A stretch of DNA of 15,490 nt, taken from positions 1 to 15,490 of the IMG/VR virus record IMGVR_UViG_2693429774_000004; one strand, 5' to 3'. Origin of the DNA: a virus (Duplodnaviria; Heunggongvirae; Uroviricota; Caudoviricetes). Below, in pieces: positions 1 through 15,490 of this stretch. The notes under the pieces are model-generated. The model was not told the origin of the DNA, ran no database searches, and saw only the letters and a program-made list of their open reading frames with translations. The first letter of the stretch is position 1. Every line of letters begins with the position of its first letter. The position numbers and the translations under genes are program-made.

Positions 1-22
1 AAAAACGAGTATTTTTAGTCAT
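1..22 (-). CDS. 5' end of an unidentified ORF running off the left edge (begins MTKNTRF)
   Basis: ATG at 22..20 on the minus strand, preceded by AGGTAAACAGG about 8 nt upstream, lying just downstream of the exo stop. Only 7 codons are in the window. The sequence past the exo stop diverges from what I recall of lambda. Confidence 0.25.
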
Positions 23-89
23 CCTGTTTACCTCTTTCTCAGGAAGTTTAGTCTCCAGGATTCCCGGGGCGGTTCATCGTGAGGATGCG

Positions 90-905
90 TCATCGCCATT
101 GCTCCCCAAATACAAAACCAATTTCAGCCAGTGCCTCGTCCATTTTTTCGATGAACTCCGGCACCATCTCGTCAAAATTCGCCATGTACTTTTCATCCCG
201 CTCAACCACGACATAATGCAGGCCTTCACGCTTCATACGCGGGTCATAGTTGGCAAAGTACCAGGCATCTTTTCGCGTCACCCACATGCTGTACTGCACC
301 TGGGCCATGTAAGCTGACTTTATGGCCTCGAAACCACCGAGCCGGAACTTCATGAAATCCCGGGAGGTAAACGGGCATTTCAGTTCAAGGCCATTGCCGT
401 CACTGCATAAACCATCGGGAGAGCAGGCGGTGCGCATACTTTCGTCGCGATAGATGATCGGGGATTCAATAACATTTACGCCGGAAGTGAACTCAAACAG
501 GGTTCTGGCGTCGTTCTCGTACTGTTTTCCCCAGGCCAGTGCTTTAGCGTTAACTTCCGGAGCCACACCGGTGCAAACCTCGGCAAGCAGGGTGTGGAAG
601 TAGGACATTTTCATGTCAGGCCACTTCTTTCCTGAGCGGGGCTTTGCTATCACGTTGTGAACTTCTGAAGCGGTGATGACGCCGAGCCGTAATTTGTGCC
701 ACGCATCATCCCCCTGTTCGACAGCTCTCACGTCGATCCCGGTAACGATATCCGTCTGATGCGTGAACGTGATGGACGTAACCACCGCGACATGTGTGTA
801 CTGTTCCGCTGGGCCTGCCAGGACAACTTCTGGTCCGGTAACGTGCTGAGTCCGGCCAAACTCCGCGACAAGTGGACCCAGCTCGAAATCAACCGGAACA
901 AGCAA
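90..905 (-). CDS. exoD: Lambda exonuclease (Exo/RedX, YqaJ family) homolog with a replaced N-terminus; possibly a pseudogene
   Basis: ORF-track protein residues about 55-271 ([31 protein letters not shown]...FVFGEQWR) match lambda Exo as I remember it almost residue for residue. The first ~54 codons have no Exo counterpart and are read antisense through the O remnant. Confidence 0.8.
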
Positions 906-980
906 CAGGCTGGCGTGACAGTCGGCAAACCAAAACTCGACCTGACAAACACTGACTGGATTTACGGGGTGGATCTATGA
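696..980 (+). pseudogene. C-terminal remnant of lambda-type replication initiator O; N-terminal DNA-binding domain and ori region absent
   Basis: Translation ends ...[44 protein letters not shown], the C-terminus of lambda O as I recall it. The stop overlaps the P start (ATGA at 977-980). O homology begins only near 745, directly abutting the exo homology on the other strand. Confidence 0.7.
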
Positions 981-1678
981 AAAACATCGCCGCACAGATG
1001 GTTAACTTTGACCGTGAGCAGATGCGTCGGATCGCCAACAACATGCCGGAACAGTACGACGAAAAGCCACAGGTACAGCAGGTAGCGCAGATCATCAACG
1101 GTGTGTTCAGCCAGTTACTGGCAACTTTCCCGGCGAGCCTGGCTAACCGTGACCAGAATGAACTGAACGAAATCCGCCGCCAGTGGGTGCTGGCTTTCCG
1201 GGAAAACGGGATCACCACAATGGAACAGGTTAACGCTGGAATGCGCGTAGCCCGTCGGCAGAATCGACCATTCCTGCCATCACCCGGGCAGTTTGTCGCC
1301 TGGTGCCGGGAAGAAGCATCCGTTACCGCCGGGCTGCCAAACGCCAGCGAGCTGGTTGATATGGTTTACGAGTATTGCCGGAAGCGCGGGCTGTATCCGG
1401 ATGCAGAGTCTTATCCGTGGAAATCAAACGCGCACTACTGGCTGGTTACCAACCTGTATCAGAACATGCGGGCCAATGCGTTGACTGACGCGGAATTACG
1501 GCGCAAGGCTGCCGATGAACTGTCCTGTATGACCGCACGAATTAACCGTGGTGAGGCTATACCTGAACCAGTAAAACAACTTCCTGTCATGGGCGGTAGA
1601 CCTCTAAATCGTGCACAGGCTCTGGCGAAGATCGCAGAAATCAAAGCTAAGTTTGGGCTGAAAGGAGCAAGGGTATGA
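977..1678 (+). CDS. Replication protein P (DnaB helicase loader), lambda gpP homolog, full length
   Basis: 233-aa ORF MKNIAAQMVNFDREQMRRIANNMPEQYDEKPQVQQVAQIINGVF...AKIAEIKAKFGLKGARV is near-identical to lambda P from memory. Start overlaps the O stop; stop overlaps the ren start. Confidence 0.9.
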   Translation: MKNIAAQMVNFDREQMRRIANNMPEQYDEKPQVQQVAQIINGVFSQLLATFPASLANRDQNELNEIRRQWVLAFRENGITTMEQVNAGMRVARRQNRPFLPSPGQFVAWCREEASVTAGLPNASELVDMVYEYCRKRGLYPDAESYPWKSNAHYWLVTNLYQNMRANALTDAELRRKAADELSCMTARINRGEAIPEPVKQLPVMGGRPLNRAQALAKIAEIKAKFGLKGARV

Positions 1679-1977
1679 CGGGCAAAGAGTCAATTATTCA
1701 TTACCTGGGGACTCATAAGAAATTCTGTGCGCAGGACGTTGCCGCGGTAACAGGCGCAACGGTAACCAGCATAAATCAGGCTGCGGCTAAAATGGCGCGG
1801 GCAGGAATCCTAGTCGTTGATGGTAAGGTCTGGCGAACGGTGTATTATCGGTTCGCTACCAGAGAAGAATGGGAAGGAAAGGTGAGCACGAATTTGATTT
1901 TTAAGGAGTGTCGCCAGAGTGCCGCGATGAAACGGGTATTGAGGGTATATAAAAGAACATCAATGGGTACACAATGA
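1675..1977 (+). CDS. Ren-like protein (lambda Ren homolog) with altered C-terminus
   Basis: MTGKESIIHYLGTH...VWRTVYYRFATREEWEGKVSTNLIFKECRQSAAMKRVL matches lambda Ren. The last ~12 residues differ because the AT-rich island starts near 1945. ATG overlaps the P stop (ATGA). Confidence 0.8.
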   Translation: MTGKESIIHYLGTHKKFCAQDVAAVTGATVTSINQAAAKMARAGILVVDGKVWRTVYYRFATREEWEGKVSTNLIFKECRQSAAMKRVLRVYKRTSMGTQ

Positions 1978-2044
1978 TGAAACAGGTGAGTTGAGTTCAA
2001 ACTGTAGTACAATTCTCTCCAGTTTGAACAGGAAAGAATATGCT

Positions 2045-2377
2045 ATGAACCCTTATATTTATCTTGGTGGTGCAATACTTGCAGAGGTCATTGGTACAAC
2101 CTTAATGAAGTTTTCAGAAGGTTTTACACGGTTATGGCCATCTGTTGGTACAATTATTTGTTATTGTGCATCATTCTGGTTATTAGCTCAGACGCTGGCT
2201 TATATTCCTACAGGGATTGCTTATGCTATCTGGTCAGGAGTCGGTATTGTCCTGATTAGTTTACTGTCATGGGGATTTTTCGGCCAACGGCTGGACCTGC
2301 CAGCCATTATAGGTATGATGTTGATTTGTGCCGGTGTGTTGGTTATTAATTTATTGTCACGAAGCACACCACATTAA
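2045..2377 (+). CDS. emrE: Small multidrug resistance (SMR) efflux transporter EmrE
   Basis: Internal Met of the 1991..2377 ORF gives the 110-aa protein MNPYIYLGGAILAEVIGTTLMKFSEGFTRLWPSVGT...LLSRSTPH, recognised as EmrE, with four hydrophobic helices and the conserved membrane-embedded Glu in helix 1. Confidence 0.95.
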   Translation: MNPYIYLGGAILAEVIGTTLMKFSEGFTRLWPSVGTIICYCASFWLLAQTLAYIPTGIAYAIWSGVGIVLISLLSWGFFGQRLDLPAIIGMMLICAGVLVINLLSRSTPH

Positions 2378-2406
2378 AATAATTTGTTTCTAAACGACTA
2401 AAATAT

Positions 2407-2450
2407 GGAGGCTCTTATATTTATATGAGCCTCGTTTTATGCTTTTTGTT
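2407..2450 (+). terminator. Probable intrinsic terminator downstream of emrE
   Basis: GGAGGCTC (2407-2414) pairs with GAGCCTC (2427-2433) around a 12-nt AT loop, followed by GTTTTATGCTTTTTGTT. Confidence 0.5.
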
Positions 2451-2631
2451 AATGTCTTTATTTTTTATGTATTCTTTTGTGCTTTCAAGATTATGGCGTA
2501 AGAAAATTGCAATACGATTATTGTTGTATATTCAAGATAATGTGACCTTAATTGTCTTTTTAAATAAAAATTAAACAAAAATTATATCCCACCACTAAGG
2601 TTTATAAAAGCATACGTTAGCAGGTGTCACC

Positions 2632-4158
2632 ATGAAAAAAGCCATAGCATATATGCGATTTTCATCACCAGGTCAGATGTCTGGTGACTCATTAAACCGA
2701 CAGAGAAGACTTATTGCTGAATGGTTAAAGGTAAATAGTGATTATTATCTTGATACCATAACATATGAAGATTTAGGATTAAGTGCATTCAAAGGAAAGC
2801 ATGCACAATCAGGAGCTTTTTCGGAATTTTTAGATGCTATAGAGCATGGTTATATATTGCCAGGAACTACATTGTTAGTTGAAAGTCTGGACAGACTTTC
2901 AAGAGAAAAAGTCGGTGAAGCGATTGAACGTCTGAAATTGATTTTGAATCACGGTATTGATGTTATAACTCTTTGCGACAATACAGTCTATAATATTGAC
3001 TCTTTGAATGAGCCATATTCATTAATAAAAGCCATACTTATAGCACAAAGGGCAAATGAAGAAAGCGAGATAAAGTCAAGTCGGGTTAAATTATCATGGA
3101 AGAAAAAACGGCAGGATGCAATGGAATCAGGTACGATTATGACGGCGTCTTGTCCGAGATGGCTCTCCTTAGATGACAAAAGAACGGCTTTTGTTCCAGA
3201 CCCCGACAGGGTGAAAACTATTGAGCTAATTTTTAAACTCAGGATGGAAAGGCGCTCATTGAATGCAATAGCCAAGTATTTAAATGATCATGCTGTAAAG
3301 AATTTCTCAGGAAAAGAAAGTGCATGGGGACCTTCTGTAATTGAAAAATTATTAGCGAATAAAGCTCTGATAGGTATATGCGTACCTTCATATCGTGCAA
3401 GAGGGAAAGGGATAAGTGAAATCGCTGGCTATTATCCCAGAGTTATATCAGATGATTTGTTTTACGCTGTACAGGAAATTCGGTTGGCACCTTTTGGTAT
3501 TAGCAATAGTAGCAAGAATCCTATGCTAATAAATCTACTTCGAACAGTTATGAAGTGTGAGGCTTGTGGTAATACCATGATTGTTCATGCGGTATCTGGA
3601 AGTTTGCATGGCTATTATGTTTGTCCGATGAGAAGATTACATCGATGTGACAGGCCATCAATAAAAAGAGATTTGGTTGATTATAATATCATTAATGAAT
3701 TGCTTTTTAATTGTAGCAAAATTCAACCAGTTGAAAACAAGAAAGATGCTAATGAAACTTTAGAGTTAAAAATTATTGAGCTTCAGATGAAAATTAATAA
3801 TTTAATCGTTGCATTGTCTGTCGCGCCTGAAGTTACCGCTATAGCAGAGAAAATAAGACTATTAGATAAGGAATTACGAAGGGCTTCGGTATCATTGAAA
3901 ACTTTGAAGAGTAAAGGTGTAAATTCATTCAGTGATTTTTATGCTATTGACTTAACCAGTAAAAATGGACGAGAGTTATGCCGTACACTTGCCTATAAAA
4001 CATTCGAAAAAATCATAATTAATACGGATAATAAAACCTGTGATATCTATTTTATGAATGGCATTGTTTTTAAACACTATCCTTTAATGAAAGTAATATC
4101 CGCCCAGCAGGCGATAAGTGCTCTCAAATATATGGTTGATGGTGAGATTTATTTCTAA
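2632..4158 (+). CDS. ybcK: Large serine recombinase (resolvase/invertase-type catalytic domain, recombinase domain, zinc ribbon, C-terminal coiled coil)
   Basis: 508-aa ORF. N-terminus AIAYMRFSSPGQ fits the serine-recombinase active-site motif (Y-x-R-x-S). Cys cluster CEACGNTM...YYVCPMRRLHRCD resembles the zinc ribbon of large serine recombinases. Lys/Glu-rich C-terminal segment. Low-GC coding. Confidence 0.88.
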   Translation: MKKAIAYMRFSSPGQMSGDSLNRQRRLIAEWLKVNSDYYLDTITYEDLGLSAFKGKHAQSGAFSEFLDAIEHGYILPGTTLLVESLDRLSREKVGEAIERLKLILNHGIDVITLCDNTVYNIDSLNEPYSLIKAILIAQRANEESEIKSSRVKLSWKKKRQDAMESGTIMTASCPRWLSLDDKRTAFVPDPDRVKTIELIFKLRMERRSLNAIAKYLNDHAVKNFSGKESAWGPSVIEKLLANKALIGICVPSYRARGKGISEIAGYYPRVISDDLFYAVQEIRLAPFGISNSSKNPMLINLLRTVMKCEACGNTMIVHAVSGSLHGYYVCPMRRLHRCDRPSIKRDLVDYNIINELLFNCSKIQPVENKKDANETLELKIIELQMKINNLIVALSVAPEVTAIAEKIRLLDKELRRASVSLKTLKSKGVNSFSDFYAIDLTSKNGRELCRTLAYKTFEKIIINTDNKTCDIYFMNGIVFKHYPLMKVISAQQAISALKYMVDGEIYF

Positions 4159-4356
4159 ATAATGATCTCGGATTTTAAGTTATGCTATGGTGATAAAGTG
4201 CAAGACAGAATTAATTATCTTTGACGAAACTTAATGGGTAATTACTTTGTTTGCTCCCACAAGCGAGTTTTGTACGGCTGTATTGGGGTAGTAAATGAGC
4301 TATACAATCTTAATCATTTGTTAGGTGAGAACTCTTGGTCGCAGATTCAAATACTG

Positions 4357-4406
4357 AAAATACGTGACAAATTATTATGAGCAAAATGGTGTATGTCACG
4401 TATTTT
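4357..4406. promoter_or_regulatory. Perfect 13-bp inverted repeat (AAAATACGTGACA / TGTCACGTATTTT) with 24-bp spacer in the ybcK-ybcL intergenic region
   Basis: Arms at 4357-4369 and 4394-4406 are exact reverse complements. Sits about 220 bp upstream of the ybcL start. Candidate operator or RNA stem-loop. Confidence 0.4.
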
Positions 4407-4622
4407 GAATGGTAGGTTAAAAAATAACACCGACTTTCGTAGGTATTACTAATAATAAAGCAGAGTTTTTAGATAGTATCAATGTGCTTTGTGTATATTG
4501 TGGCAAATAATTGGGTTGGGGGTACAATTGTGATTGCTTTTGCATAAACATTGCGCCTTTATGCATAATGAGATAAAGGAATATCAAATAAAATAACGAT
4601 AGGTCATAACAAAGAGGTTTTT

Positions 4623-5174
4623 ATGAAAACACTTATCGTTTCAACTGTATTGGCATTCATAACATTTTCTGCGCAGGCTGCAGCATTTCAGGTCACTAGT
4701 AATGAAATAAAAACAGGAGAGCAACTTACAACGTCTCATGTCTTTTCTGGATTTGGGTGTGAAGGTGGTAATACATCGCCCTCATTAACCTGGTCTGGTG
4801 TTCCTGAAGGTACCAAAAGCTTTGCCGTAACTGTATATGATCCAGATGCACCTACAGGCAGTGGTTGGTGGCATTGGACTGTTGTTAATATTCCAGCAAC
4901 AATAACATATTTGCCCGTTGATGCAGGGAGACGTGATGGAACAAAACTGCCGACTGGTGCTGTTCAAGGCCGAAATGATTTTGGCTATGCTGGGTTTGGT
5001 GGCGCATGTCCTCCTAAAGGAGATAAACCACATCATTACCAGTTTAAAGTATGGGCTCTAAAAACTGAAAAGATTCCTGTAGATTCTAACTCCAGCGGAG
5101 CGTTAGTTGGTTATATGCTTAATGCTAATAAAATCGCAACCGCTGAGATAACACCAGTTTATGAGATAAAGTAG
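4623..5174 (+). CDS. ybcL: Periplasmic PEBP/RKIP-family protein YbcL with signal peptide
   Basis: 183-aa ORF with N-terminal signal peptide (MKTLIVSTVLAFITFSAQAAA) and PEBP-like core (VTVYDPDAPTGSGWWHWTVVNIP...HHYQFKVWAL). Preceded by GAGG. Confidence 0.9.
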   Translation: MKTLIVSTVLAFITFSAQAAAFQVTSNEIKTGEQLTTSHVFSGFGCEGGNTSPSLTWSGVPEGTKSFAVTVYDPDAPTGSGWWHWTVVNIPATITYLPVDAGRRDGTKLPTGAVQGRNDFGYAGFGGACPPKGDKPHHYQFKVWALKTEKIPVDSNSSGALVGYMLNANKIATAEITPVYEIK

Positions 5175-5183
5175 GGTGAGAGT

Positions 5184-5981
5184 ATGCTGGCAAGAGGTAA
5201 GACTAACTTAAAGATCGAAGAAATACGGATGCATAAACATCATGAGATTCATAGGGTTAAGCCTCTTATGCCAGCTTTGTGTCGTATCCGTCAGGGAAAG
5301 AAAGTTATCAATTGGGAGACGCATACTTTAACTGTTGATAATAATCAAATAATATTATTTCCTTGTGGTTATGAATTTTATATTGAGAATTATCCTGAAG
5401 CAGGGCTTTATCTTGCAGAAATGCTTTACTTACCCATTGATTTAATTGAGAGTTTCCAAAAACTTTATACGGTAACTGATCAAATACGTAACAAAACAAG
5501 TTTCTTTTTACCTCAGAATCCTGAGTTAATATATTGTTGGGAGCAACTAAAAACATCTGTTTCCCGAGGCTTCTCAACTAAAATTCAGGAGCACTTAGCA
5601 ATGGGCGTTCTACTTTCGTTAGGAGTGAATCATGTTAATCATTTACTTTTATCATATAGTAAACAATCATTGATAAGTCGTTGTTATAACCTGCTGCTAT
5701 CCGAACCCGGCACAAAATGGACAGCAAACAAGGTTGCTCGATATCTCTACATTTCTGTTTCTACATTACATCGCCGTCTAGCAAGCGAGGGGGTAAGTTT
5801 CCAAAGTATACTGGACGATGTGAGGTTAAATAATGCGTTGTCTGCTATACAAACGACGGTAAAACCTATAAGCGAGATTGCCAGAGAAAATGGTTATAAG
5901 TGTCCTTCTCGTTTTACTGAAAGATTTCATAATCGTTTTAATATAACACCAAGAGAGATAAGAAAAGCTTCCAGAGAGTAA
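5184..5981 (+). CDS. ybcM: AraC/XylS-family transcriptional regulator
   Basis: 265-aa ORF with a C-terminal AraC-type double helix-turn-helix ([21 protein letters not shown]...[32 protein letters not shown]). Low-GC coding. Confidence 0.85.
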
Positions 5982-6045
5982 AAGTGTTTTAAGAAGGAGC
6001 AATTCTATCGATTTTGATTTTGGGAAATCAACACGGCATAATTAT

Positions 6046-6074
6046 GTCACCGGAGCCTGAACAACTCCGGTGAC
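6046..6074 (+). terminator. Stem-loop at the right boundary of the AT-rich island (possible weak terminator of ybcM)
   Basis: GTCACCGGAG (6046-6055) pairs perfectly with CTCCGGTGAC (6065-6074) around a 9-nt loop, followed by TTCTGCG, only a weak U-tract. Confidence 0.3.
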
Positions 6075-6097
6075 TTCTGCGCTAAACGGGGACGTTT

Positions 6098-6199
6098 ATG
6101 CGCACATACAATCCAAACTCTCTTCTCCCTTCACAGATGCAGAAATGCACCTGCAATTCTTTGCATCTAGCGTTTGACCTCTGCGGAGGTGAAGCGTGA
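6098..6199 (+). CDS. ylcH: Small 33-codon ORF upstream of and overlapping the ybcN start (possibly ylcH)
   Basis: ATG at 6098 to TGA at 6197-6199 ([33 protein letters not shown]). Stop overlaps the ybcN GTG start as GTGA. The name is from memory of a similarly sized K-12 ORF; coding status is uncertain. Confidence 0.3.
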
Positions 6200-6651
6200 A
6201 CCTCTCACAAGACGGCATCAAATTACATCGCGGCAACTTCACCGCTATCGGTCGGCAGATCCAGCCTTATCTGGAGGAGGGCAAATGCTTTCGCATGGTG
6301 CTTAAACCGTGGCGTGAGAAACGCAGTCTTTCCCAGAATGCACTCAGCCACATGTGGTACAGCGAAATCAGTGAATACCTCATCAGCAGGGGTAAAACGT
6401 TCGCCACTCCAGCTTGGGTAAAAGATGCTCTCAAACACACATATCTCGGTTATGAAACCAAAGACCTGGTTGATGTCGTAACCGGTGATATCACCACTAT
6501 CCAGTCGTTACGCCATACCTCCGATCTTGATACCGGAGAGATGTATGTCTTCCTGTGTAAGGTTGAAGCCTGGGCGGTGAATATTGGCTGCCACCTGACT
6601 ATTCCGCAGAGCTGCGAGTTCCAGCTGCTCCGCGACAAGCAGGAGGCGTAA
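6196..6651 (+). CDS. ybcN: NinB/Orf-family recombination protein (lambda NinB homolog)
   Basis: 151-aa ORF from GTG at 6196 with GGAGG 6 nt upstream. Central [16 protein letters not shown] region resembles the lambda NinB core. Stop overlaps the ninE ATG (TAATG). Confidence 0.85.
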
Positions 6652-6821
6652 TGGCTACACCGCTTATTCGTGTCATGAACGGACACATCTACAGAGTATC
6701 AAATCGTCGTAAGCGTAAGCCTGAGCTGAAGCCATCCGAAATACCAACACTGCTCGGATATACCGCTAGCCTGGTTGATAAAAAATGGTTGCGACTGGCA
6801 GCAAGGAGGAATCATGGCTGA
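6651..6821 (+). CDS. ninE: NinE-family small protein
   Basis: 56-codon ORF translated by hand ([56 protein letters not shown]). Coupled to ybcN upstream and overlaps ybcO downstream. Too short for the ORF track. Confidence 0.7.
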   Translation: MATPLIRVMNGHIYRVSNRRKRKPELKPSEIPTLLGYTASLVDKKWLRLAARRNHG

Positions 6822-7104
6822 TTTGAGAAAAGCAGCGCGTGGTCGGGAATGCCAGGTAAGAATCCCTGGCGTATGTAATGGCAATTCTGAAACGTCTGTA
6901 CTGGCACATATCCGGCTGGCTGGATTGTGCGGTACCGGTATCAAACCGCCAGACCTGATTGCCACCATTGCATGTTCTGCCTGCCACGACGAAATCGACC
7001 GCCGCACACATTTTGTCGATGCTGCATATGCAAAAGAATGCGCGCTGGAAGGTATGGCGAGAACACAGGTTATCTGGCTGAAAGAGGGGGTTATTAAGGC
7101 GTGA
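6814..7104 (+). CDS. ybcO: YbcO (DUF1364) putative zinc-dependent nuclease
   Basis: 96-aa protein from the internal Met of the 6775..7104 ORF ([29 protein letters not shown]...), with AGGAGGA 5-11 nt upstream. Contains paired Cys motifs. Stop overlaps the rusA GTG start. Confidence 0.85.
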
Positions 7105-7463
7105 ATACCTACAGTATCACATTACCCTGGCCTCCGAGCAATAATCGCTATTACCGCCATAATCGCGGGCGCACGCACGTCAGTGCAGAGGGGCAGGCAT
7201 ACCGCGATAACGTCGCCCGAATCATTAAAAGCGCAATGCTGGATATCGGCCTGGCTATGCCTGTGAAAATCCGCATTGAGTGCCACATGCCGGATCGCCG
7301 TCGCCGTGACCTGGATAATCTGCAAAAAGCCGCTTTTGACGCACTCACTAAAGCAGGTTTCTGGCTGGATGATGCTCAGGTCGTTGATTACCGCGTTGTG
7401 AAGATGCCTGTTACCAAAGGTGGGAGGCTGGAACTGACCATCACCGAAATGGGGAATGAATGA
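7101..7463 (+). CDS. rusA: Holliday junction resolvase RusA
   Basis: 120-aa protein [37 protein letters not shown]...[10 protein letters not shown], recognised as RusA. GTG start. Confidence 0.92.
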
Positions 7464-7600
7464 TGTTTGAGTTTAATATAGCAGAACTTCTTCGCCACCG
7501 CTGGGGGCGTCTGCGCTTATATCGTTTCCCCGGTTCTGTTTTGACCGATTACCGAATACTGAAGAATTACGCCAAAACCCTGACAGGAGCAGGAGTATGA
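7460..7600 (+). CDS. ylcG: Small nin-region protein (YlcG-like)
   Basis: 46-codon ORF ([46 protein letters not shown]). ATG overlaps the rusA stop (ATGATG). Hand translated. Confidence 0.55.
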
Positions 7601-7685
7601 AGTCAGAGATAACAATCAACTAATACTGTTTTATTGATTTTTGCTTGTAATTGGCGTTCTGGTCTGATTTTTGTGGAGTAAGTTG

Positions 7686-8069
7686 ATGCGTGATATTCAG
7701 ATGGTTCTTGAGCGTTGGGGAGCGTGGGCGGCTAATAATCATGAAGATGTGACCTGGTCGTCCATTGCCGCCGGTTTTAAGGGATTAATTCCTTCAAAAG
7801 TAAAATCTCGCCCGCAATGTTGTGACGATGACGCGATGATCATTTGCGGGTGCATGGCCCGTCTGAAAAAGAACAACAGCGATTTGCACGATTTATTAGT
7901 AGATTATTATGTAGTTGGTATGACATTCATGTCACTGGCAGGTAAGCATTGCTGCTCTGATGGTTATATCGGGAAAAGGTTACAGAAGGCTGAGGGCATA
8001 ATTGAAGGGATGTTAATGGCATTAGATATCCGGTTAGAGATGGATATCGTTGTTAATAACTCTAATTAA
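7686..8069 (+). CDS. quuD: Late-gene antiterminator Q
   Basis: 127-aa protein from the ATG at 7686 ([26 protein letters not shown]...). Cys-rich segment [16 protein letters not shown]...KHCCSDGY is consistent with a Q-type zinc-binding antiterminator. Sits at the nin/late boundary. The ORF track begins at an upstream TTG (7671). Confidence 0.85.
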
Positions 8070-8094
8070 TACGCCAATTATTTACTAAAAGTTA

Positions 8095-8262
8095 TTAAAA
8101 ATGGGGCGTTGAAACGCCCCCAAAAATAAAGGGTAATATATAACAGAAGGTTTGTATAGTTAGAAGCAAGGTTGTGCTTCTAAAGGAAGTGGCTTGAGGG
8201 AGCCACTTATATGTTGGGGAGGCAAAGCCTCCCACAACATATCTTTTAGTAATCAAATTAGA
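8095..8262 (-). ncRNA. ipeX: Candidate small RNA from the nmpC 3' region (possibly IpeX-like), ending at a minus-strand intrinsic terminator
   Basis: On the minus strand the 8103-8120 hairpin is followed by ATTTTTAATAAC, a canonical terminator about 140-160 nt past the nmpC stop. I recall an sRNA named IpeX mapping beside nmpC in DLP12, but I cannot confirm its exact coordinates or strand from memory. Confidence 0.3.
8103..8247 (+). promoter_or_regulatory. Cluster of four stem-loops between quuD and nmpC: candidate late-promoter leader/qut region with terminator
   Basis: Stems at 8103-8120 (GGGGCGTT/AACGCCCC), 8162-8181 (AGAAGCA/TGCTTCT), 8187-8208 (AAGTGGCT/AGCCACTT) and 8211-8240 (ATGTTGGGGAGGC/GCCTCCCACAACAT, one bulge). 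The last is followed by ATCTTTTAG on the plus strand. Confidence 0.4.
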
Positions 8263-9340
8263 ACTGGTAAACCATACCTACAGCAACGATATCATCGGTA
8301 GCAACGCCAGATGCTTTCGTGAAATCGCTCTTATCAATCAGGTTGATTTTGTAGTCAACAAAAGTGGACATATTTTTGTTGAAGTAATAGGTTGCACCTA
8401 CATCAACATATTCAACCAGGTCCTGATCACCCCAAACACCCAAGTCTTTTCCTTTAGAATGCAGGTAAGCAACGGATGGACGCAGGCCGAAGTCGAACTG
8501 ATATTGTGCAACAGCTTCGAAGTTTTGTGCTTTGTTGGCAATATGGTTATTACCAAAAACAGTCATGTTCTGGGTTTCAGAATAGGTGGTGGCCAGATAG
8601 ATGTTGTTCGCATCATATTTCAGACCAGCTGCCCATACTTCAGCATTTTGACCAGAAGCATTCAGACCGTTGTTACCGTAGATAACCTGATTATTAGTGC
8701 GATCAGATTTAGCATAGGTTGCACCTACACCGAATCCTTCATACTCATAAGTAGTGGAGAAACCGAAACCATCACCATTAGCTTCAGTTACGTCAGTGCG
8801 GTCATTTTTACCCTGATACTGAGCAGCAAAGTTCAGACCATCAACCAGACCAAAGAAGTCGTTGTTACGATAAGTTGCAACACCAGTGGTGCGACCAGTC
8901 ATGAACACATCTGTTTGAGTCCAAGTGTCACCACCGAATTCTGGCAGGACGTCAGTCCACGCACCGATGTCGTATGCTACACCGTAGTTACGGCCGTAAT
9001 CGATGGAGCCGTAGTCACCGAATTTCAGGCCAGCGAAGGCAAGACGGGTTTTATCTTTGGAGGAACCTTGAGATTCAGCGCGGTTGCCTTTGAATTCATA
9101 TTCCCACTGACCGAAACCAGTCAGTTGATCGTTGATTTGGGTTTCACCTTTGAAGCCAAGACGGGCATAAGTAGTATCACCATCATCTGCATCATTAGAG
9201 GAGAAGTAGTGCTTAGCATTAACTTTCCCGTACAGATCCAGCTTGTTACTGTCTTTATTATAAATTTCAGCTGCCTGAGCAGACATCGCCATCAGTACTG
9301 ATGCAGCTACAGCAGAAATTGCCACTGTTAATTTTTTCAT
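8258..9340 (-). CDS. nmpC: Outer membrane general porin NmpC (OmpD/OmpC family), apparently intact
   Basis: 360-aa ORF with signal peptide [23 protein letters not shown], porin-typical Gly/Tyr/Asp-rich beta-strand composition and the conserved C-terminal motif VGMVYQF. Confidence 0.92.
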
Positions 9341-9928
9341 CGTGAGCCCTTTTTTTTGAACTATTATTAAAAAATGATGTCACTGCGCGATAAATATTCA
9401 TCTAATCAATGTGATTATTTCAAGATGTAAGTTTTAGTTTCTCATTTAATTTGTGAAGTAGATCTCTATTTTTATCTGAACTTTTTCTATCGAAACCTAT
9501 TTATGGCTCTTATTTGAACAAAAATAAACCTATTAGCTAATTTATATTAATGGCTGTTATTTATGGGGGGTCTATAATTCGATGGTTTAATTTAAATTAA
9601 CTAAAAATAACGCCGGAAATTATTTATTGGTTATTTGTTGAGGTTTTCTTATGTATTTGTGGTGGTGTTTTGAACACTCGGTAGCATTCTCATAAATATC
9701 ATTCAGTGGTTTACGTACGTAAAAAATTGGTTATGCTGTTAAGAGTGGTTACTTCGTCACACAGCTTAAACCCGCCGTCGAGCTGGTTTTTCCATTTTTT
9801 GAGTCTCGATATTAGCTGATAACTCAATACCTGAGTTATTCACTGACTCCGAGTCTGTTACGTTTCTGCTTTTTTGCGATACGTTGTATTCCCTCAATTT
9901 ACACCCGCTTTGTCTGCGAGGTGGGGTT

Positions 9929-10144
9929 ATGAAATCCATGGATAAGTTAACAACGGGTGTCGCCTATGGCACCTCAGCAGGTAGTGCCGGTTACTGGTTT
10001 TTACAGCTGCTCGATAAAGTCACGCCCTCACAGTGGGCAGCAATAGGTGTGCTGGGTAGCCTGGTATTTGGCCTGCTGACGTACCTGACAAACCTTTATT
10101 TCAAGATTAAAGAAGATAAGCGCAAGGCTGCGAGAGGTGAATAA
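9929..10144 (+). CDS. essD: Class II holin / pinholin (phage 21 S-like) with dual-start motif
   Basis: 71-aa protein [71 protein letters not shown]. Met1 and Met4 give the classic antiholin/holin dual start; two TMDs. The ORF track starts at an upstream in-frame Met. Stop overlaps the rrrD ATG. Confidence 0.9.
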
Positions 10145-10641
10145 TGCCTCCATCATTACGAAAAGCCGTTGCTGCTGCTATTGGTGGCGGAGCAATTGCT
10201 ATAGCATCAGTGTTAATCACTGGCCCAAGTGGTAACGATGGTCTGGAAGGTGTCAGCTACATACCATACAAAGATATTGTTGGTGTATGGACCGTATGTC
10301 ACGGGCATACAGGAAAAGACATCATGCTCGGTAAAACGTATACCAAAGCAGAATGCAAAGCACTCTTGAATAAAGACCTTGCCACTGTCGCCAGACAAAT
10401 TAACCCATACATCGAAGTCGATATACCGGAAACAACGCGCGGCGCTCTTTACTCATTCGTTTACAACGTGGGTGCTGGCAATTTCAGAACATCGACGCTT
10501 CTTCGCAAAATAAACCAGGGCGATATCAAAGGCGCATGTGATCAGTTACGTCGCTGGACATATGCTGGCGGTAAGCAATGGAAAGGTCTCATGACTCGTC
10601 GTGAGATTGAGCGTGAAATCTGTTTGTGGGGTCAGCAATGA
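10144..10641 (+). CDS. rrrD: SAR (signal-anchor-release) endolysin, lysozyme of the phage 21 R type
   Basis: 165-aa ORF. N-terminal Gly/Ala-rich weakly hydrophobic segment ([20 protein letters not shown]) typical of SAR domains, followed by a lysozyme catalytic region. Confidence 0.92.
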
Positions 10642-11099
10642 ACAGAGTAACCGCGATTATCTCCGCTCTGGTTATCTGCATCATCGTCTGCCTGTCATGG
10701 GCTGTTAATCATTACCGTGATAACGCCATTACCTATAAAGCCCAGCGCGACAAAAATGCCAAAGAACTGAAGCTGGCGAACGCGGCAATTACTGACATGC
10801 AGATGCGTCAGCGTGATGTTGCTGCGCTCGATGCAAAATACACGAAGGAGTTAGCTGATGCGAAAGCTGAAAATGATGCTCTGCGTGATGATGTTGCCGC
10901 TGGTCGTCGTCGGTTGCACATCAAAGCAGTCTGTCAGTCAGTGCGTGAAGCCACCACCGCCTCCGGCGTGGATAATGCAGCCTCCCCCCGACTGGCAGAC
11001 ACCGCTGAACAGGATTATTTCACCCTCAGAGAGAGGCTGATCACTATGCAAAAACAACTGGAAGGAACCCAGAAGTATATTAATGAGCAGTGCAGATAG
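10638..11099 (+). CDS. rzpD: Spanin inner-membrane subunit Rz (i-spanin)
   Basis: 153-aa protein from the ATG at 10638 ([26 protein letters not shown]...), with an N-terminal TMD and coiled-coil periplasmic region. Start overlaps the rrrD stop. Confidence 0.9.
10858..11040 (+). CDS. rzoD: Spanin outer-membrane lipoprotein subunit Rz1 (o-spanin), embedded in the +1 frame of rzpD
   Basis: 60-aa [27 protein letters not shown]... with a lipobox (VVGC) and proline-rich mature region ([15 protein letters not shown]), lying entirely inside rzpD. Confidence 0.85.
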
Positions 11100-11130
11100 A
11101 GCTGCCCATATCGATGGGCAACTCATGCAA

Positions 11131-11424
11131 TTATTGTGAGCAATACACACGCGCTTCCAGCGGAGTATAAATGCCTAAAGTAATAAAACCGAGCAATCCA
11201 TTTACGAATGTTTGCTGGGTTTCTGTTTTAACAACATTTTCTGCGCCGCCACAAATTTTGGCTGCATCAACAGTTTTCTCCTGTCCAATTCCCGAAACGA
11301 AGAAGTGATGGGTGATGGTTTCCTTTGGTGTTACTGCTGTCGGTTTGTTTCCAACAGTAAACGTCTGTTGAGCACATCCTGTAATAAGCATTGCCAGAGC
11401 GGCAGAAAACAACATTTTTTTCAT
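11131..11424 (-). CDS. borD: Bor-family outer-membrane lipoprotein (serum-resistance protein homolog)
   Basis: 97-aa protein from the internal Met (MKKMLFSAALAMLITGCAQQTFTV...EARVYCSQ) with lipobox LITGC; near-identical to lambda Bor from memory. The ORF track starts 16 codons upstream. Confidence 0.9.
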   Translation of the reverse strand: MKKMLFSAALAMLITGCAQQTFTVGNKPTAVTPKETITHHFFVSGIGQEKTVDAAKICGGAENVVKTETQQTFVNGLLGFITLGIYTPLEARVYCSQ

Positions 11425-11786
11425 CTTATTATCCTGCATTGTTAAAAACGGCAGAATCCTATGTGACAACAATTAAACGATAGTTAAATGGATTGATGAA
11501 AATTAAAACTATATAGGTGTACGCTCAGACTATTGGAGGAAGTTGGGGACACTCAGAATCCTGTGGAATGAAATAAACCGGTCTATCCGTCTATTACCCT
11601 TTTAGCTGCGCTGTATCGTCGCCGTATTCCCGCATTAACCATGACCGTAGCCCGACGGGGAATTCCTTCTGCGTGAGTGTGCGGGAATAATCAAAAACGA
11701 TGCACACCGGGTTTTACTGTGCTGACAGACGCAGGGTTACCCTCATAGTCGCTTTTCCGGTGCGATGGTGGAAGAAACCGGGATGT

Positions 11787-11981
11787 TCATCCATCATCAC
11801 TTTGGATTGATGTATATGCTCTCTTTTCTGACGTTAGTCTCCGACGGCAGGCTTCAATGACCCAGGCTGAGAAATTCCCAGACCCTTTTTGCTCAAGAGC
11901 GATGTTAATTTGTTCAATCATTTGGTTAGGAAAGCGGATGTTGCGGGTTGTTGTTCTGCGGGTTTTGTTCTTCGTTGACAT
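11787..11981 (-). CDS. ylcI: Small ribbon-helix-helix-like protein near the prophage right end (YlcI-like)
   Basis: 64-aa ORF MSTKNKTRRTTTRNIRFPNQMIEQINIALEQKGSGNFSAWVIEACRRRL... Basic N-terminus, then a strand-helix-helix pattern compatible with an RHH fold. The flanking DNA matches the lambda right end as I recall it. Confidence 0.5.
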   Translation of the reverse strand: MSTKNKTRRTTTRNIRFPNQMIEQINIALEQKGSGNFSAWVIEACRRRLTSEKRAYTSIQSDDG

Positions 11982-12180
11982 GAGGTTGCCCCGTATTCAG
12001 TGTCGCTGATTTGTATTGTCTGAAGTTGTTTTTACGTTAAGTTGATGCAGATCAATTAATACGATACCTGCGTCATAATTGATTATTTGACGTGGTTTGA
12101 TGGCGTAGATGCACGTTGTGACATATAGATGATAATTATTATCATTTTGCGGGTCCTTTCCGGCGATCCGACAGGTTACG

Positions 12181-12192
12181 GGGCGGCGACCT
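12181..12192 (+). other. cosN: lambda-type 12-nt cohesive-end sequence
   Basis: GGGCGGCGACCT, preceded by ...CCGACAGGTTACG and followed by CGCGGGTTTTCGCTATTTATGAAAATTTTCCGG, i.e. the junction of lambda right and left ends as I recall them. Confidence 0.85.
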
Positions 12193-12369
12193 CGCGGGTT
12201 TTCGCTATTTATGAAAATTTTCCGGTTTAAGGTGTTTCCGTTCTTCTTCGTCGTAACTTAATGTTTTTATTTAAAATACCCCCTGAAAAGAAAGGAAACG
12301 ACAGGTGCTGAAAACGAGCTTTTGGGCCTCTGTCGTTTCCTTTCTCTGTTTTTGGCCGTGGAATGAACA
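12193..12369 (+). other. cosB region (terminase small-subunit binding sites and IHF site) between cosN and the nohD start
   Basis: Position and near-identity to the first ~180 nt of the lambda left end. Individual R3/R2/R1 sites not mapped. Confidence 0.6.
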
Positions 12370-12511
12370 ATGGAAGTCAACAAAAAGCAGCTGGCTGACA
12401 TTTTCGGTGCGAGTATCCGTACCATTCAGAACTGGCAGGAACAGGGAATGCCCGTTCTGCGAGGCGGTGGCAAGGGTAATGAGGTGCTTTATGACTCTGC
12501 CGCCGTCATAA
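12305..12511 (+). CDS. ybcW: 68-codon ORF overlapping cosB and the 5' end of nohD (YbcW-like); doubtful coding status
   Basis: ORF present in the track. I recall a 68-aa ybcW annotated at this position in K-12, but it lies in a different frame across cosB and nohD and the same DNA in lambda is not considered coding. Confidence 0.15.
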   Translation: MLKTSFWASVVSFLCFWPWNEQWKSTKSSWLTFSVRVSVPFRTGRNRECPFCEAVARVMRCFMTLPPS

Positions 12512-12915
12512 AATGGTATGCCGAAAGGGATGCTGAAATTGAGAACGAAAAGCTGCGCCGGGAAGTTGAAGAACTGCGGCAGGCCAGCGAGACAGATCTC
12601 CAGCCAGGGACTATTGAGTACGAACGCCATCGACTTACGCGTGCGCAGGCCGACGCACAGGAGCTGAAAAATGCCAGAGACTCCGCTGAAGTGGTGGAAA
12701 CCGCATTCTGTACTTTCGTGCTGTCGCGGATCGCAGGTGAAATTGCCAGTATTCTCGACGGGATCCCCCTGTCGGTGCAGCGGCGTTTTCCGGAACTGGA
12801 AAACCGACATGTTGATTTCCTGAAACGGGATATCATCAAAGCCATGAACAAAGCAGCCGCGCTGGATGAACTGATACCGGGGTTGCTGAGTGAATATATC
12901 GAACAGTCAGGTTAA
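12370..12915 (+). CDS. nohD: Terminase small subunit Nu1 homolog (cos-binding), full length
   Basis: 181-aa ORF MEVNKKQLADIFGASIRTIQNWQEQGMPVLRGGGKGNEVLYDSAAVIKWYAERDAEIENEKLRREVEELRQ...GLLSEYIEQSG, essentially lambda Nu1, with a winged-HTH N-terminus. Confidence 0.93.
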   Translation: MEVNKKQLADIFGASIRTIQNWQEQGMPVLRGGGKGNEVLYDSAAVIKWYAERDAEIENEKLRREVEELRQASETDLQPGTIEYERHRLTRAQADAQELKNARDSAEVVETAFCTFVLSRIAGEIASILDGIPLSVQRRFPELENRHVDFLKRDIIKAMNKAAALDELIPGLLSEYIEQSG

Positions 12916-13135
12916 CAGGCTGCGGCATTTTGTCCGCGCCGGGCTTCGCTCACTGTTCAGGCCGGAGCCACAGACCGCCGTTGAATGGGCGGATGCTAAT
13001 TACTATCTCCCGAAAGAATCCGCATACCAGGAAGGGCGCTGGGAAACACTGCCCTTTCAGCGGGCCATCATGAATGCGATGGGCAGCGACTACATCCGTG
13101 AGGTGAATGTGGTGAAGTCTGCCCGTGTCGGTTAA
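12890..13135 (+). pseudogene. N-terminal 81-codon stub of terminase large subunit A
   Basis: [81 protein letters not shown] matches the lambda gpA N-terminus, then stops at 13133-13135 where homology ends. Start overlaps the nohD 3' end as in lambda. Confidence 0.85.
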
Positions 13136-13185
13136 CCGCGCTGACAGACAATACGCAGGGGGCAGCAGGTCTTGAGTTATACGAG

Positions 13186-14088
13186 GTGTATAACAACGGA
13201 TATCCAACAGCGTATGGAAATATCATTCACCTGAAAGGGATGACAGCCGTTGGCGAAGGTGAGTTACTCATCGGCTGGAGTGGTACAAGCGGTGCTCATG
13301 CTCCGGCATTTATTCGTTCACGACGGGATACGACCGACGCAAACTGGTCGCCGTGGGCGCAGCTTTACACCTCGGCTCATCCTCCTGCAGAGTTTTATCC
13401 AGTCGGTGCACCAATCCCGTGGCCATCAGATACCGTTCCGTCTGGTTATGCCCTGATGCAGGGGCAGACTTTTGACAAATCTGCATACCCGAAACTTGCA
13501 GTTGCTTATCCGTCAGGCGTGATCCCTGATATGCGTGGCTGGACGATTAAGGGCAAGCCCGCCAGTGGTCGGGCCGTATTATCTCAGGAACAGGACGGCA
13601 TTAAATCGCACACCCACAGCGCCAGCGCATCCAGTACGGATTTGGGGACGAAAACCACATCGTCGTTTGATTACGGAACCAAATCCACGAATAACACCGG
13701 GGCGCATACCCATAGTATTAGCGGGACCGCAAATAGTGCCGGCGCGCACCAACACAAGAGTTCCGGTGCATTTGGTGGCACGAACACGAGCATTTTCCCT
13801 AATGGTTATACCGCGATTTCAAATCCAAGCGCGGGGATTATGAGCACAACAAGCGGTAGTGGCCAGACTCGTAATGCAGGGAAGACATCATCAGATGGTG
13901 CTCATACCCACTCGCTGTCCGGCACTGCTGCAATCGCAGGCGCACATGCACATACTGTCGGTATTGGTGCTCATACGCACTCCGTTGCGATTGGCTCACA
14001 TGGACACACCATCACCGTTAACGCTGCGGGTAACGCGGAAAACACCGTCAAAAACATCGCATTTAACTATATTGTGAGGCTTGCATAA
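13186..14088 (+). pseudogene. C-terminal fragment of a side tail fibre gene (lambda Stf / T4 gp37-like distal domain)
   Basis: 300-aa ORF ending ...[14 protein letters not shown] like lambda Stf, with seven His-x-His motifs. No N-terminal tail-attachment region. The frame is open from about 13117; the track start at 13186 is GTG. Confidence 0.85.
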
Positions 14089-14669
14089 TGGCATTCAGAA
14101 TGAGTGAACAAGCACGGACCATAAAAATTTATAATCTGCTGGCCGGAACTAATGAATTTATTGGTGAAGGTGACGCATATATTCCGCCTCATACAGGTCT
14201 GCCAGCAAACAGTACCGATATTGCACCACCAGATATTCCGGCAGGCTTCGTGGCTGTTTTCAACAGTGATGAGGCATCGTGGCATCTCGTTGAAGACCAT
14301 CGGGGTAAAACGGTTTATGACGTGGCTTCCGGCGACGCGTTATTTATTTCTGAACTCGGTCCGTTACCGGAAAATGTTACCTGGTTGTCGCCGGGAGGGG
14401 AATATCAGAAGTGGAACGGCACAGCCTGGGTGAAGGATACGGAAGCAGAAAAACTGTTCCGGATCCGGGAGGCAGAAGAAACAAAAAACAGCCTGATGCA
14501 GGTAGCCAGTGAGCATATTGCGCCACTTCAGGATGCTGTAGATCTGGAAATCGCAACGGAGGAAGAAACCTTGTTGCTGGAAGCCTGGAAAAAGTATCGG
14601 GTGTTGCTGAACCGTGTTGATACATTAACTGCACCGGATATTGAATGGCCAGTAGCACCTATAGGGTAA
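14088..14669 (+). CDS. tfaD: Tail fibre assembly protein Tfa
   Basis: 193-aa [57 protein letters not shown]... near-identical to lambda Tfa from memory. ATG overlaps the stf stop (TAATG). Confidence 0.9.
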
Positions 14670-14754
14670 ATTCGTAATGATTACCTAAATACGTTATTCT
14701 TTTGTTAAAAAAGTGATTTTGCTATAGGTAGGGAGTATGTTCTTGGATTAAGAA

Positions 14755-14786
14755 TAAAAAATCGCCATGAAAGAGCTTCATGGCGA
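14755..14786 (-). terminator. Perfect 10-bp stem-loop with adjacent A6/T6 tract, terminator-like in minus orientation
   Basis: TCGCCATGAA (14762-14771) pairs with TTCATGGCGA (14777-14786) around a 5-nt loop. AAAAAA lies immediately upstream on the plus strand, which is a U-tract after the hairpin on the minus strand. Confidence 0.3.
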
Positions 14787-15418
14787 GTACATAAACGTAC
14801 AAAATGTGATGAAAGTAGAGTGGCGTAAGCCACTATATTAAGATATGACAATAGCGAAGAAAAGTAAATAACATTTCATGGACGTTTAATTGTTAATTAT
14901 AAAAACTAGAGTGCCCGATATTGTTTATCTTGCTTTAAAATAATGTACTCAAACCAAATTTTTGAGCTAAAAGCTCAAATAATATAAATGCAATAATAAT
15001 GTTTAATAAGACAATTAGCTTGCTTTGTATTTTCATTTCGGAATACTGTTAAGTAACTTTGATGACCCTAACAATAGATCGGAATTTTCTTAGAGTCAAT
15101 GGTCACTGTTTTTGCTTGCAAAGCAAATGTTTTGGTGGTTATAAGTTGTCTTAATATAGTCACGCATGCAACTTGTTCCATGCGGAGATTAAAGATTGGA
15201 ATATAACGCGAAGATGGAATTAAATTACATTTGCAATAATCAATTTATTATTACTCAATAATTACCGATATTATTATTGTAAATTAATCATTAGAGTGCA
15301 AAAAGAAATGTAACGGCAAAATAAGAGGACGATAGCTGAGAAAAAAGCGTGCTTTCCCAATCTGGGGCAAATCACGTCTGAATGACACCTGAAAACAGGT
15401 GGTAGCCTCAAGAAGGCT

Positions 15419-15490
15419 GGTGATGCTGCCAACTTACTGATTTAGTGTATGATGGTGTTTTTGAGGTGCTCCAGTGGCTTCTGTTTCTAT
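15419..15490 (+). mobile_element. IS1 left end (terminal inverted repeat and start of insA), truncated by the window edge
   Basis: GGTGATGCTGCCAACTTACTGATTTAGTGTATGATGGTGTTTTTGAGGTGCTCCAGTGGCTTCTGTTTCTAT matches the IS1 terminus as I remember it. insA appears to start at the GTG at 15474 (V/M-A-S-V-S-I...). Confidence 0.85.

Follow-up and report, generated by a model that had tools for sequence, protein, structure and literature searches.

YbcK is a predicted large serine recombinase, does not serve as the integrase of its own prophage and is probably selected cargo of DLP12/lambda-type phages

Large serine recombinases (LSRs) are prized genome-engineering tools and are normally taken as the marker of an element's own integrase. 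Their attP sites usually adjoin the recombinase gene. TnpX and TndX, the LSRs of Tn4451 and Tn5397, move small elements via a circular intermediate with a GA dinucleotide. The gene ybcK, studied here in a stretch of 15,490 nucleotides from a Caudoviricetes virus record (IMGVR_UViG_2693429774_000004, positions 1 to 15,490; hereafter the window), clearly does not mark an integrase of its element: YbcK is not the integrase of the prophage that carries it. The explanation that we favour, and consider somewhat probable, is that YbcK is a functional, phage-selected and trans-acting LSR, carried as cargo in the accessory slot between ren and the ninB-like ybcN of DLP12/lambda-type phages.

The gene is the sole long open reading frame (ORF) at its position and starts with ATG. 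Its product has the parts expected of an LSR, identified with Pfam, PHROG, an AlphaFold 2 (AF2) model and Foldseek:

2632-4158, plus strand: ybcK ORF, predicted LSR of 508 amino acids (ORF list, Pfam, PHROG, AF2 model and Foldseek)
2641-3114, plus strand: catalytic (resolvase-type) N-terminal domain, residues 4-161, with the nucleophile S11 plus R9, D87, R88 and R91 (PF00239, 5e-19)
3202-3483, plus strand: recombinase domain (RD), residues 191-284 (PF07508, 2.2e-14)
3535-3912, plus strand: zinc-ribbon domain (ZD) with an inserted coiled coil, residues 302-427, with cysteines 309, 312, 331 and 339 (Pfam, alignment and AF2)

The serine motif reads A-I-A-Y-M-R9-F-S11-S-P-G-Q15 (YMRFSSPGQ), with S11 as the nucleophile. 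Residues R9, S11, Q15, D87, R88 and R91 are unchanged across 24 aligned homologues, at identities down to 28%, and the zinc ligands C309, C312, C331 and C339 are likewise invariant in 24 of 24; the ribbon is matched by Zn_ribbon_recom (PF13408, residues 302-357, 8e-08). The model (mean predicted local distance difference test score, pLDDT, of 82) has long helices at residues 346-364, 368-397 and 401-427, which are predicted to form the LSR coiled coil and which align, through the family profile, with the coiled coil of A118 Int. The profile of the YbcK family matches the A118/LI integrase over residues 189-476 (3e-16), covering RD and ZD, and also the TP901-1 catalytic domain and the PhiC31 integrase; it was needed for this, as a search of PDB sequences with the single YbcK sequence found nothing. 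The top Foldseek matches of the model are full-length serine integrase-att complexes (E = 9e-18), with further matches to PhiC31, Bxb1 and the LI integrase-DNA complex, at sequence identities of just 13-25% to the solved structures. YbcK falls in PHROG 95 'integrase' (4.5e-120) and also matches PHROG 125 'DNA invertase' (1.3e-21), and its sole NCBIfam match, XisF, stays below threshold (47 bits for a cut-off of 375). None of the PADLOC defence models matches YbcK, EmrE, YbcL or YbcM, and functional work on YbcK as a recombinase did not turn up in the literature library that was searched. Judging by these domains and the modelled fold, YbcK is a canonical LSR of the phiC31/Bxb1/A118 type. The original prediction, made by reading the sequence, had noted the serine motif, the zinc ribbon and the coiled coil and had proposed the phiC31/Bxb1 class. 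The Pfam domains, the invariant catalytic and zinc residues and the AF2 helices uphold the former, and the fold matches to serine integrase-att complexes and the profile match to the A118 integrase uphold the latter; loss of the catalytic Ser and Arg residues, which would have spoken against it, was seen in none of the 24 homologues.

A prophage integrase would lie at the boundary of its element, by attL or attR, and would set the insertion site. Instead, ybcK is internal, between ren/emrE and ybcN, and a tyrosine integrase adjoins every related prophage that was examined, although none is visible for the genome of the window itself. Prophages with ybcK lie between ybhC and ybhB/bioA (the lambda attB) beside a tyrosine recombinase, by icd, also with a tyrosine recombinase, and by argU, with intD as the tyrosine recombinase. 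Because each of these three attachment sites comes with a tyrosine integrase, YbcK does not set the integration site. The isolated phages PhiR70_1, PhiR68_2, 4A7 and 1W encode YbcK at 97-100% amino acid identity, and PhiR70_1, the only one that was inspected, is a complete lambda-like genome with a tyrosine Int/Xis pair. Among the sampled loci with enough upstream sequence to judge colinearity, 66 are fully colinear with the window upstream of ybcK (P-ren-emrE-ylcJ) and one departs within emrE. For the calling of prophage boundaries, LSR genes are thus risky markers.

The gene is frequent in Escherichia coli and well preserved. DNA of ybcK is present in 1427 of 5426 complete genomes, near full length in 1400 of the positive ones and at an identity of at least 95% in 1410, with a median of one and a maximum of two copies per genome. 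Of the 123 full-length copies in related loci that were drawn from genomes and IMG/VR, 122 are intact. The median ratio of non-synonymous to synonymous substitution rates (dN/dS) over 57 nucleotide alleles (1210 pairs) is 0.077, and the window differs from another E. coli allele (locus L003) by 13 non-synonymous and 38 synonymous changes. The gene thus appears to be under strong purifying selection. The suggestion that it may be the relic integrase of a decayed element does not agree with this ratio, with the intactness of nearly all copies or with its carriage by isolated phages.

We found no DNA near ybcK on which the protein could be seen to act. Searches for direct and inverted repeats involving its flanks, over 1900-6300 and over the whole window, found none, and a scan of the window for imperfect palindromes of 20+2+20 gave counts near those of Markov-shuffled controls. 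The observation that no att- or hix-like sites are visible around the gene therefore stands, both searches being empty, and the search proposed in the original prediction, for short imperfect palindromes with a central dinucleotide, returned nothing above chance when run on the window. The top match of the palindrome scan is the following:

2879-2902, no strand assigned: perfect 11+2+11 palindrome TTGAAAGTCTG-GA-CAGACTTTCAA, with a GA core

It falls in the codons for VESLDRLS, the catalytic motif of ybcK, and is found in both E. coli alleles compared (the window and L003). As a recombination site it was rejected, since 13 homologous genes that retain the same peptide do not keep it (7-13/20, with no long contiguous arms), and we judge it to be, in all likelihood, an accident of a quasi-palindromic coding motif. 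The second match, at 2408-2433, was dropped as an att candidate because it coincides with the putative terminator hairpin of emrE. No inverted arrangement occurs in 86 related loci, which are colinear by comparison of their plus-strand flanks. An invertase system would have bounding inverted repeats and both orientations, and ybcK has neither; the idea that it might be a large DNA invertase or an excisionase, in so far as it concerned nearby DNA, finds no support, flanking repeats and inversions both being missing. The other option of the original prediction, an active enzyme whose site lies elsewhere, agrees with all that was observed and may hold. A 34-nt remnant of ybcK in strain LR-50 is explained by an IS1-mediated deletion.

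The window is a defective DLP12/lambda-type prophage. Relative to the intact phage PhiR70_1, which served as the reference, it has lost the whole immunity region (gam, kil, cI, cro, cII) and almost every head and tail gene, and an exo fragment (window 76-744) is joined to the 3' part of the replication gene O at ~743. These losses bear out the cryptic-prophage setting that had been proposed. The gene order is O'/P/ren, emrE, ylcJ, ybcK, ybcL, ybcM, ybcN, ninE, ybcO, rusA, ylcG, quuD, a porin gene and the lysis genes. The block from ~2000 to 6000 has 32-41% GC and is bordered on both sides by DNA of 48-56% GC; ybcK itself has 35%, compared with ~50% in the phage backbone. Three features precede the gene:

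2045-2377, plus strand: emrE, the cargo gene before ybcK in nearly all sampled E. coli prophage copies (annotations, upstream colinearity, PHROG 1395)
2384-2631, plus strand: AT-rich leader holding the annotated small ORF ylcJ (flank comparison)
2408-2447, plus strand: intrinsic-terminator-like hairpin (GAGGCTC, 12-nt loop, GAGCCTC, T run; palindrome scan and sequence)

The form of the hairpin and its place after the emrE stop codon at 2377 suggest that it is the terminator of emrE. In E. coli the leader always accompanies ybcK, both in the related loci with enough upstream sequence and in the genome matches, and it is missing from the chromosomal locus between fliE and yedK that is described below. 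Near the end of the defective prophage, a full-length Rfam match to IS009 (RF02111, 228 bits; 14431-14629, plus strand) overlaps the 3' part of a tail-fibre-assembly-like ORF.

Downstream of ybcK the prophages diverge. Homology to other ybcK loci stops at 4167 and returns at 6012-6037, which delimits a slot with three features:

4159-4235, plus strand: 3' flank of ybcK, roughly 70% identical between two groups of ybcK alleles, with an extended -10-like TGCTATGGT (post-stop comparison, 86 loci)
4168-6012, plus strand: hypervariable cargo slot, occupied here by ybcL (4623-5174) and ybcM (5184-5981) (homology breaks against other ybcK loci)
6014-6074, plus strand: conserved right border of the slot, kept in all nine cargo variants (promoter scan match at 6014-6042)

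In the 86 ybcK loci the DNA after the gene falls into nine gene sets, plus two IS-disrupted versions (the variability was noted in loci L003, L004, L005, L032, L065, L067, L069, L070, L082 and L083):

Set 1: ybcL-ybcM
Set 2: an alpha/beta hydrolase
Set 3: a 107-aa P22_AR_C protein, then a 260-aa protein
Set 4: the 107-aa P22_AR_C protein, then a 168-aa protein
Set 5: the 107-aa P22_AR_C protein, then a 118-aa protein
Set 6: the 107-aa P22_AR_C protein, then BstA (PADLOC, 3.6e-121)
Set 7: the 107-aa P22_AR_C protein, then an 83-aa protein
Set 8: a lone 63-aa ORF
Set 9: a pair of ORFs of 90 aa and 105 aa

The abortive-infection gene BstA is the only alternative cargo that matches a PADLOC defence model, and the slot has the look of a hot spot for phage defence genes or cargo. 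The variation is wider than ybcK: the whole interval from ren to ybcN is variable among lambdoid prophages, with breaks at ~1947-1968 on the left and 6012-6037 on the right, some lambdoid phages have only small unknown ORFs there, and the same slot varies, with other genes, in phages that do not carry ybcK. The flank at 4159-4235 is probably the promoter of the downstream cargo. The right border holds a promoter-like TTGATT-17-CATAAT, which includes a TTGATTT/AAATCAA palindrome, followed by a perfect 10-bp hairpin GTCACCGGAG...CTCCGGTGAC, upstream of a 33-aa ORF and ybcN; it may be a regulated nin-region promoter or terminator. When the cargo borders were compared for half-site symmetry and common motifs, just these promoter-like and hairpin elements emerged. 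Because the variant junctions fall at several positions and the cargo ends have no common motif, we read the variation as what seems to be ordinary hot-spot mosaicism, and not as the insertion of cassettes by YbcK.

Part of the same region is also widespread in E. coli as a chromosomal remnant. In the band of 90-95% identity (2553 records), every sampled row has emrE, ybcL and ybcM without ybcK. The locus that we inspected (L002, 6001-9818) lies between fliE and yedK, carries these three genes and a porin gene, and corresponds to window positions 1968-2383, 4523-6198 and 7971-9670. It has neither 2384-4522 (ylcJ and ybcK) nor 6199-7970 (ybcN to quuD), all phage genes having been removed cleanly along with ybcK. 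The border at the position of ybcK was rejected as an att scar, as it consists of an AATAAT microhomology only, which fits a deletion by microhomology. The locus looks like a domesticated prophage remnant that retains only cargo. Retention of the host-useful cargo there, against the loss of ybcK along with the phage genes, suggests that the gene is of service to the phage and of no gain to the host.

The association with accessory slots extends to the wider family. Homologues of YbcK, 42-60% identical and 505-522 aa long, occur across Enterobacterales (a search of genome contigs with the single YbcK protein yielded E. coli, a single Atlantibacter locus and a fragment, and nothing else); their contexts were read within flanks of at most 10 kb. 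In five lambdoid lineages they lie directly after replication genes and before Q: in E. coli, in Atlantibacter (L021 and L161, with DinI, DUF1367 and NinG downstream), in L115, in L108 (on the opposite strand) and in Pantoea dispersa. Others belong to an accessory cluster that follows the genes for the tail fibre and its assembly and lies close to, or at, the end of the prophage. Examples come from Yersinia, Erwinia and Ewingella, from Atlantibacter, where ssrA is 540 bp away, from Pantoea, together with an O-acyltransferase, from L110/L111, behind umuDC, and from L109, adjoining a yedK-like gene. In a P2-like phage the homologue stands alone, on the opposite strand, between gpV and gpS, a slot that in other phages has unrelated cargo or is empty. 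One context places it beside a P2-like tyrosine integrase, and another on a plasmid-like element that also encodes TraD and MobA. In 13 of 15 contexts the recombinase gene has 35-43% GC within flanks of 48-60% GC. The DNA common to different contexts spans only ~-70 to +10 of the ORF; between L013 and L021, for instance, an identity of 76% at the nucleotide level runs from -68 to about the stop codon (+0 to +3). No conserved terminal motif was found at the gene ends across the contexts compared. Several homologues have a -35-like TTCACA ~60-75 nt upstream. Upstream palindromes (TGTTCA-N5-TGAACA, TGAGCGCGCTCA) were rejected as common recombination sites, since they are lineage-specific and overlap this element, and they are probably operators or promoters.

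Taken by its contexts, the YbcK family appears to behave as a single-gene cargo cassette. The gene shows what marks morons and other hot-spot cargo: a deviating base composition (a GC fraction of 0.35 versus ~0.50), a variable slot, and homologues in other accessory slots. The original prediction was right about the prophage but missed this part of the context, namely that ybcK is one cargo item in an accessory slot and that its homologues occupy similar slots of unrelated phages.

Some of these loci deserve mention in their own right. In the lambdoid prophage L161, whose homologue is 59% identical, a recombinase-KGG-DinI block is bracketed by two versions of the DUF1367 gene, one a 5' fragment and the other full-length. 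They (9623-9851 and 12609-12831) are 82.5% identical over 229 bp; at such low identity, and with no att features at the junction, the duplication was rejected as an integration signature. It is probably a mosaic joint and could be an old insertion scar. In L157 (8145-11530), a homologue of 50% identity lies on an element resembling a plasmid or an integrative and conjugative element (ICE), near TraD and a MobA/MobL relaxase and divergent from a 555-aa gene with a faint Shufflon_N match; the YbcK family is therefore not restricted to phages. Two homologues (L007, 8001-10232; L106, 3922-6574) are directly beside the ends of P2-like prophages, one adjoining ogr and the other 110 bp from the stop codon of a P2-type tyrosine integrase, which suggests tandem prophages or a common insertion region. 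Finally, SOS-related cargo (umuD/umuC, dinI, a yedK-like SRAP gene) is repeatedly found beside homologues (L110, L111, L017, L155, L021, L161, L109) and may hint at co-regulation or a common cargo pool.

The functioning of the gene can be sketched from these data. The ybcK unit would be a low-GC transcription unit made of the leader, the ORF and the short 3' flank. In K-12, a Rho- and NusG-dependent terminator (tybcK) in the untranslated leader upstream of ybcK silences the gene (PMC4150792), which also lies within a region of polyP-dependent Hfq-bound chromatin (PMC10954037). It would be silent in the lysogen and, sharing its strand with O, P, ren and Q, would be read mainly during N-antiterminated early-right transcription. 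By analogy with the solved LSRs, dimers of YbcK would bind two different sites of ~40-50 bp via their recombinase and zinc-ribbon domains, and the coiled coils would license synapsis. S11 would then make staggered cuts around the central dinucleotide, and subunit rotation would exchange the strands, in one direction only. YbcK would neither integrate its prophage nor act on the DNA that flanks it; its substrates would lie outside the window, and it would be the phage, more than the host, that profits from its activity. As the most plausible role in particular we tentatively put forward a spare or secondary function in integration and recombination. We are more doubtful that YbcK-type proteins form a clade of free-standing LSRs, carried as single-gene cargo by unrelated temperate phages of Enterobacterales, and now and then by plasmids, in their accessory and defence hot spots, and acting in trans on the DNA of competitors, of the host or of incoming cargo. 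If true, these would be enzymes of conflict or gene shuffling and not the integrases of their carriers.

The alternatives differ in where YbcK would act. It might be a secondary integrase of the phage that works in cis, with an attP in the leader (2384-2631) or the 3' flank (4159-4235) and a second chromosomal attB. The leader and ~75 nt of 3' flank always accompany ybcK, which would suit such a site given that LSRs usually have attP next to the gene, and in Atlantibacter, Erwinia, Ewingella and L109 the homologue is the last prophage gene before the host DNA (in one case 540 bp from ssrA). Yet in every sampled E. coli locus that is long enough, ybcK is internal (P-ren-emrE to ybcN), and no prophage in the sampled loci is permuted at ybcK. 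Neither flank has an att-like dyad above chance, and the DNA common to the contexts of homologues reaches no more than ~70 nt before and 10 nt beyond the ORF, so that we hold this explanation to be unlikely. Quite unlikely, in our view, is a self-mobile cassette, in which the gene and its short ends would be a minimal TnpX-like or homing-type element that inserts into permissive phage sites. A serine transposase of this kind would be expected to vary in copy number and context and to have conserved termini, whereas E. coli genomes have one copy (median 1, maximum 2), in the same place in nearly all sampled loci, with neither conserved terminal motifs nor target duplications at the ends. It is true that ybcK and its relatives are discrete low-GC single genes in backbones of 48-60% GC (13 of 15 contexts), that one, in a P2-like phage, stands by itself between gpV and gpS and on the opposite strand, and that a single lineage (76% nucleotide identity) has members in a nin region and at the end of a prophage, whose homology is confined to -68..+9. 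But ordinary cargo genes, which are not self-mobile, give the same pattern, and the gpS-gpV slot has unrelated cargo in other phages.

The variable DNA after ybcK raises the question of whether the enzyme captures cassettes, inserting or exchanging the downstream genes in the manner of an integron integrase. Nine alternative gene sets between conserved borders (4167 and 6012-6037), and a similarity to the window's version of the 3' flank that falls 9 nt past the stop codon, are what this would predict. However, the junctions of the variants lie at several positions, most variants have the same 107-aa P22_AR_C gene and diverge only after it, the cargo ends have no common motif and the two borders no dyad relationship. 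The slot also varies in phages without ybcK, as ordinary phage mosaicism would have it, and cassette capture seems to us very unlikely. That ybcK is what remains of an old integration module, now decaying and without function, is highly improbable in view of its median dN/dS (0.077), its 122 intact copies out of 123, the invariance of catalytic and zinc residues across genera and its presence in isolated phages, even though the prophage of the window is defective, the gene is transcriptionally silenced in K-12 (PMC4150792, PMC10954037), and it was lost in the fliE-yedK remnant and by the IS1-mediated deletion in one strain. The least credible reading is a local invertase or excisionase, a switch that flips or removes neighbouring genes. 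The serine recombinases PinQ and PinR do invert prophage DNA in other E. coli cryptic prophages, but no direct or inverted repeats lie by ybcK or its neighbours, the 86 loci show no inversion, and YbcK is an LSR of 508 aa, not a small invertase of ~190 aa of the Hin/Pin type.

Carriage as trans-acting cargo, the explanation that we prefer, has weaknesses of its own. That YbcK is functional and acts in trans would follow from its conservation, and no substrate site, rearrangement or phenotype was found. The signal of selection could in part stem from hitch-hiking with a young, recombining phage module. The proposed timing of expression is read from gene order only. Finally, some of the terminal homologues may be true integrases, because the last gene before host DNA is the usual place of an integrase. 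If the preferred explanation holds, ybcK is a selected, phage-borne cargo LSR in the best-studied bacterium. Its sites, once found, would give a unidirectional recombinase native to E. coli and would reveal the use of a second, unlinked recombinase to a temperate phage, be it alternative integration, inter-phage recombination or conflict.

Compared with known systems, YbcK is like the large serine integrases of phages (A118/LI, PhiC31, Bxb1, TP901-1) in its four-part architecture and its catalytic residues. It differs from them in that ybcK lies away from the borders of its element and lacks an adjoining attP/attB pair, while the phages that carry it have a tyrosine Int/Xis that explains their integration; no partner of the recombination directionality factor (RDF) type was identified. 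The domesticated or developmental LSRs XisF and SpoIVCA have the same domain order, but the XisF score (47 versus a cut-off of 375) indicates that YbcK is not a member, and no interrupted host gene is evident around ybcK. With the small invertases PinE, PinQ and PinR it has in common the serine-recombinase catalytic domain and the residence in cryptic prophages. These end in a C-terminal helix-turn-helix, where YbcK has recombinase, zinc-ribbon and coiled-coil domains, and ybcK comes without an invertible tail-fibre segment and without flanking inverted repeats. The single-gene cassette pattern fits TnpX and TndX loosely, but ybcK shows no polymorphism of copy number or insertion site in E. 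coli and no conserved element ends. Phage morons and hot-spot cargo (lambda ren-nin, tail-end conversion loci, P2-like slots) normally encode functions in host fitness or defence, whereas YbcK is a predicted site-specific recombinase that matches no defence model. It resembles them in its low GC, its discrete unit, its promoter-like sequences and its variable presence, and genes such as emrE, BstA, an O-acyltransferase gene, umuDC and dinI are the neighbours of ybcK and its homologues.

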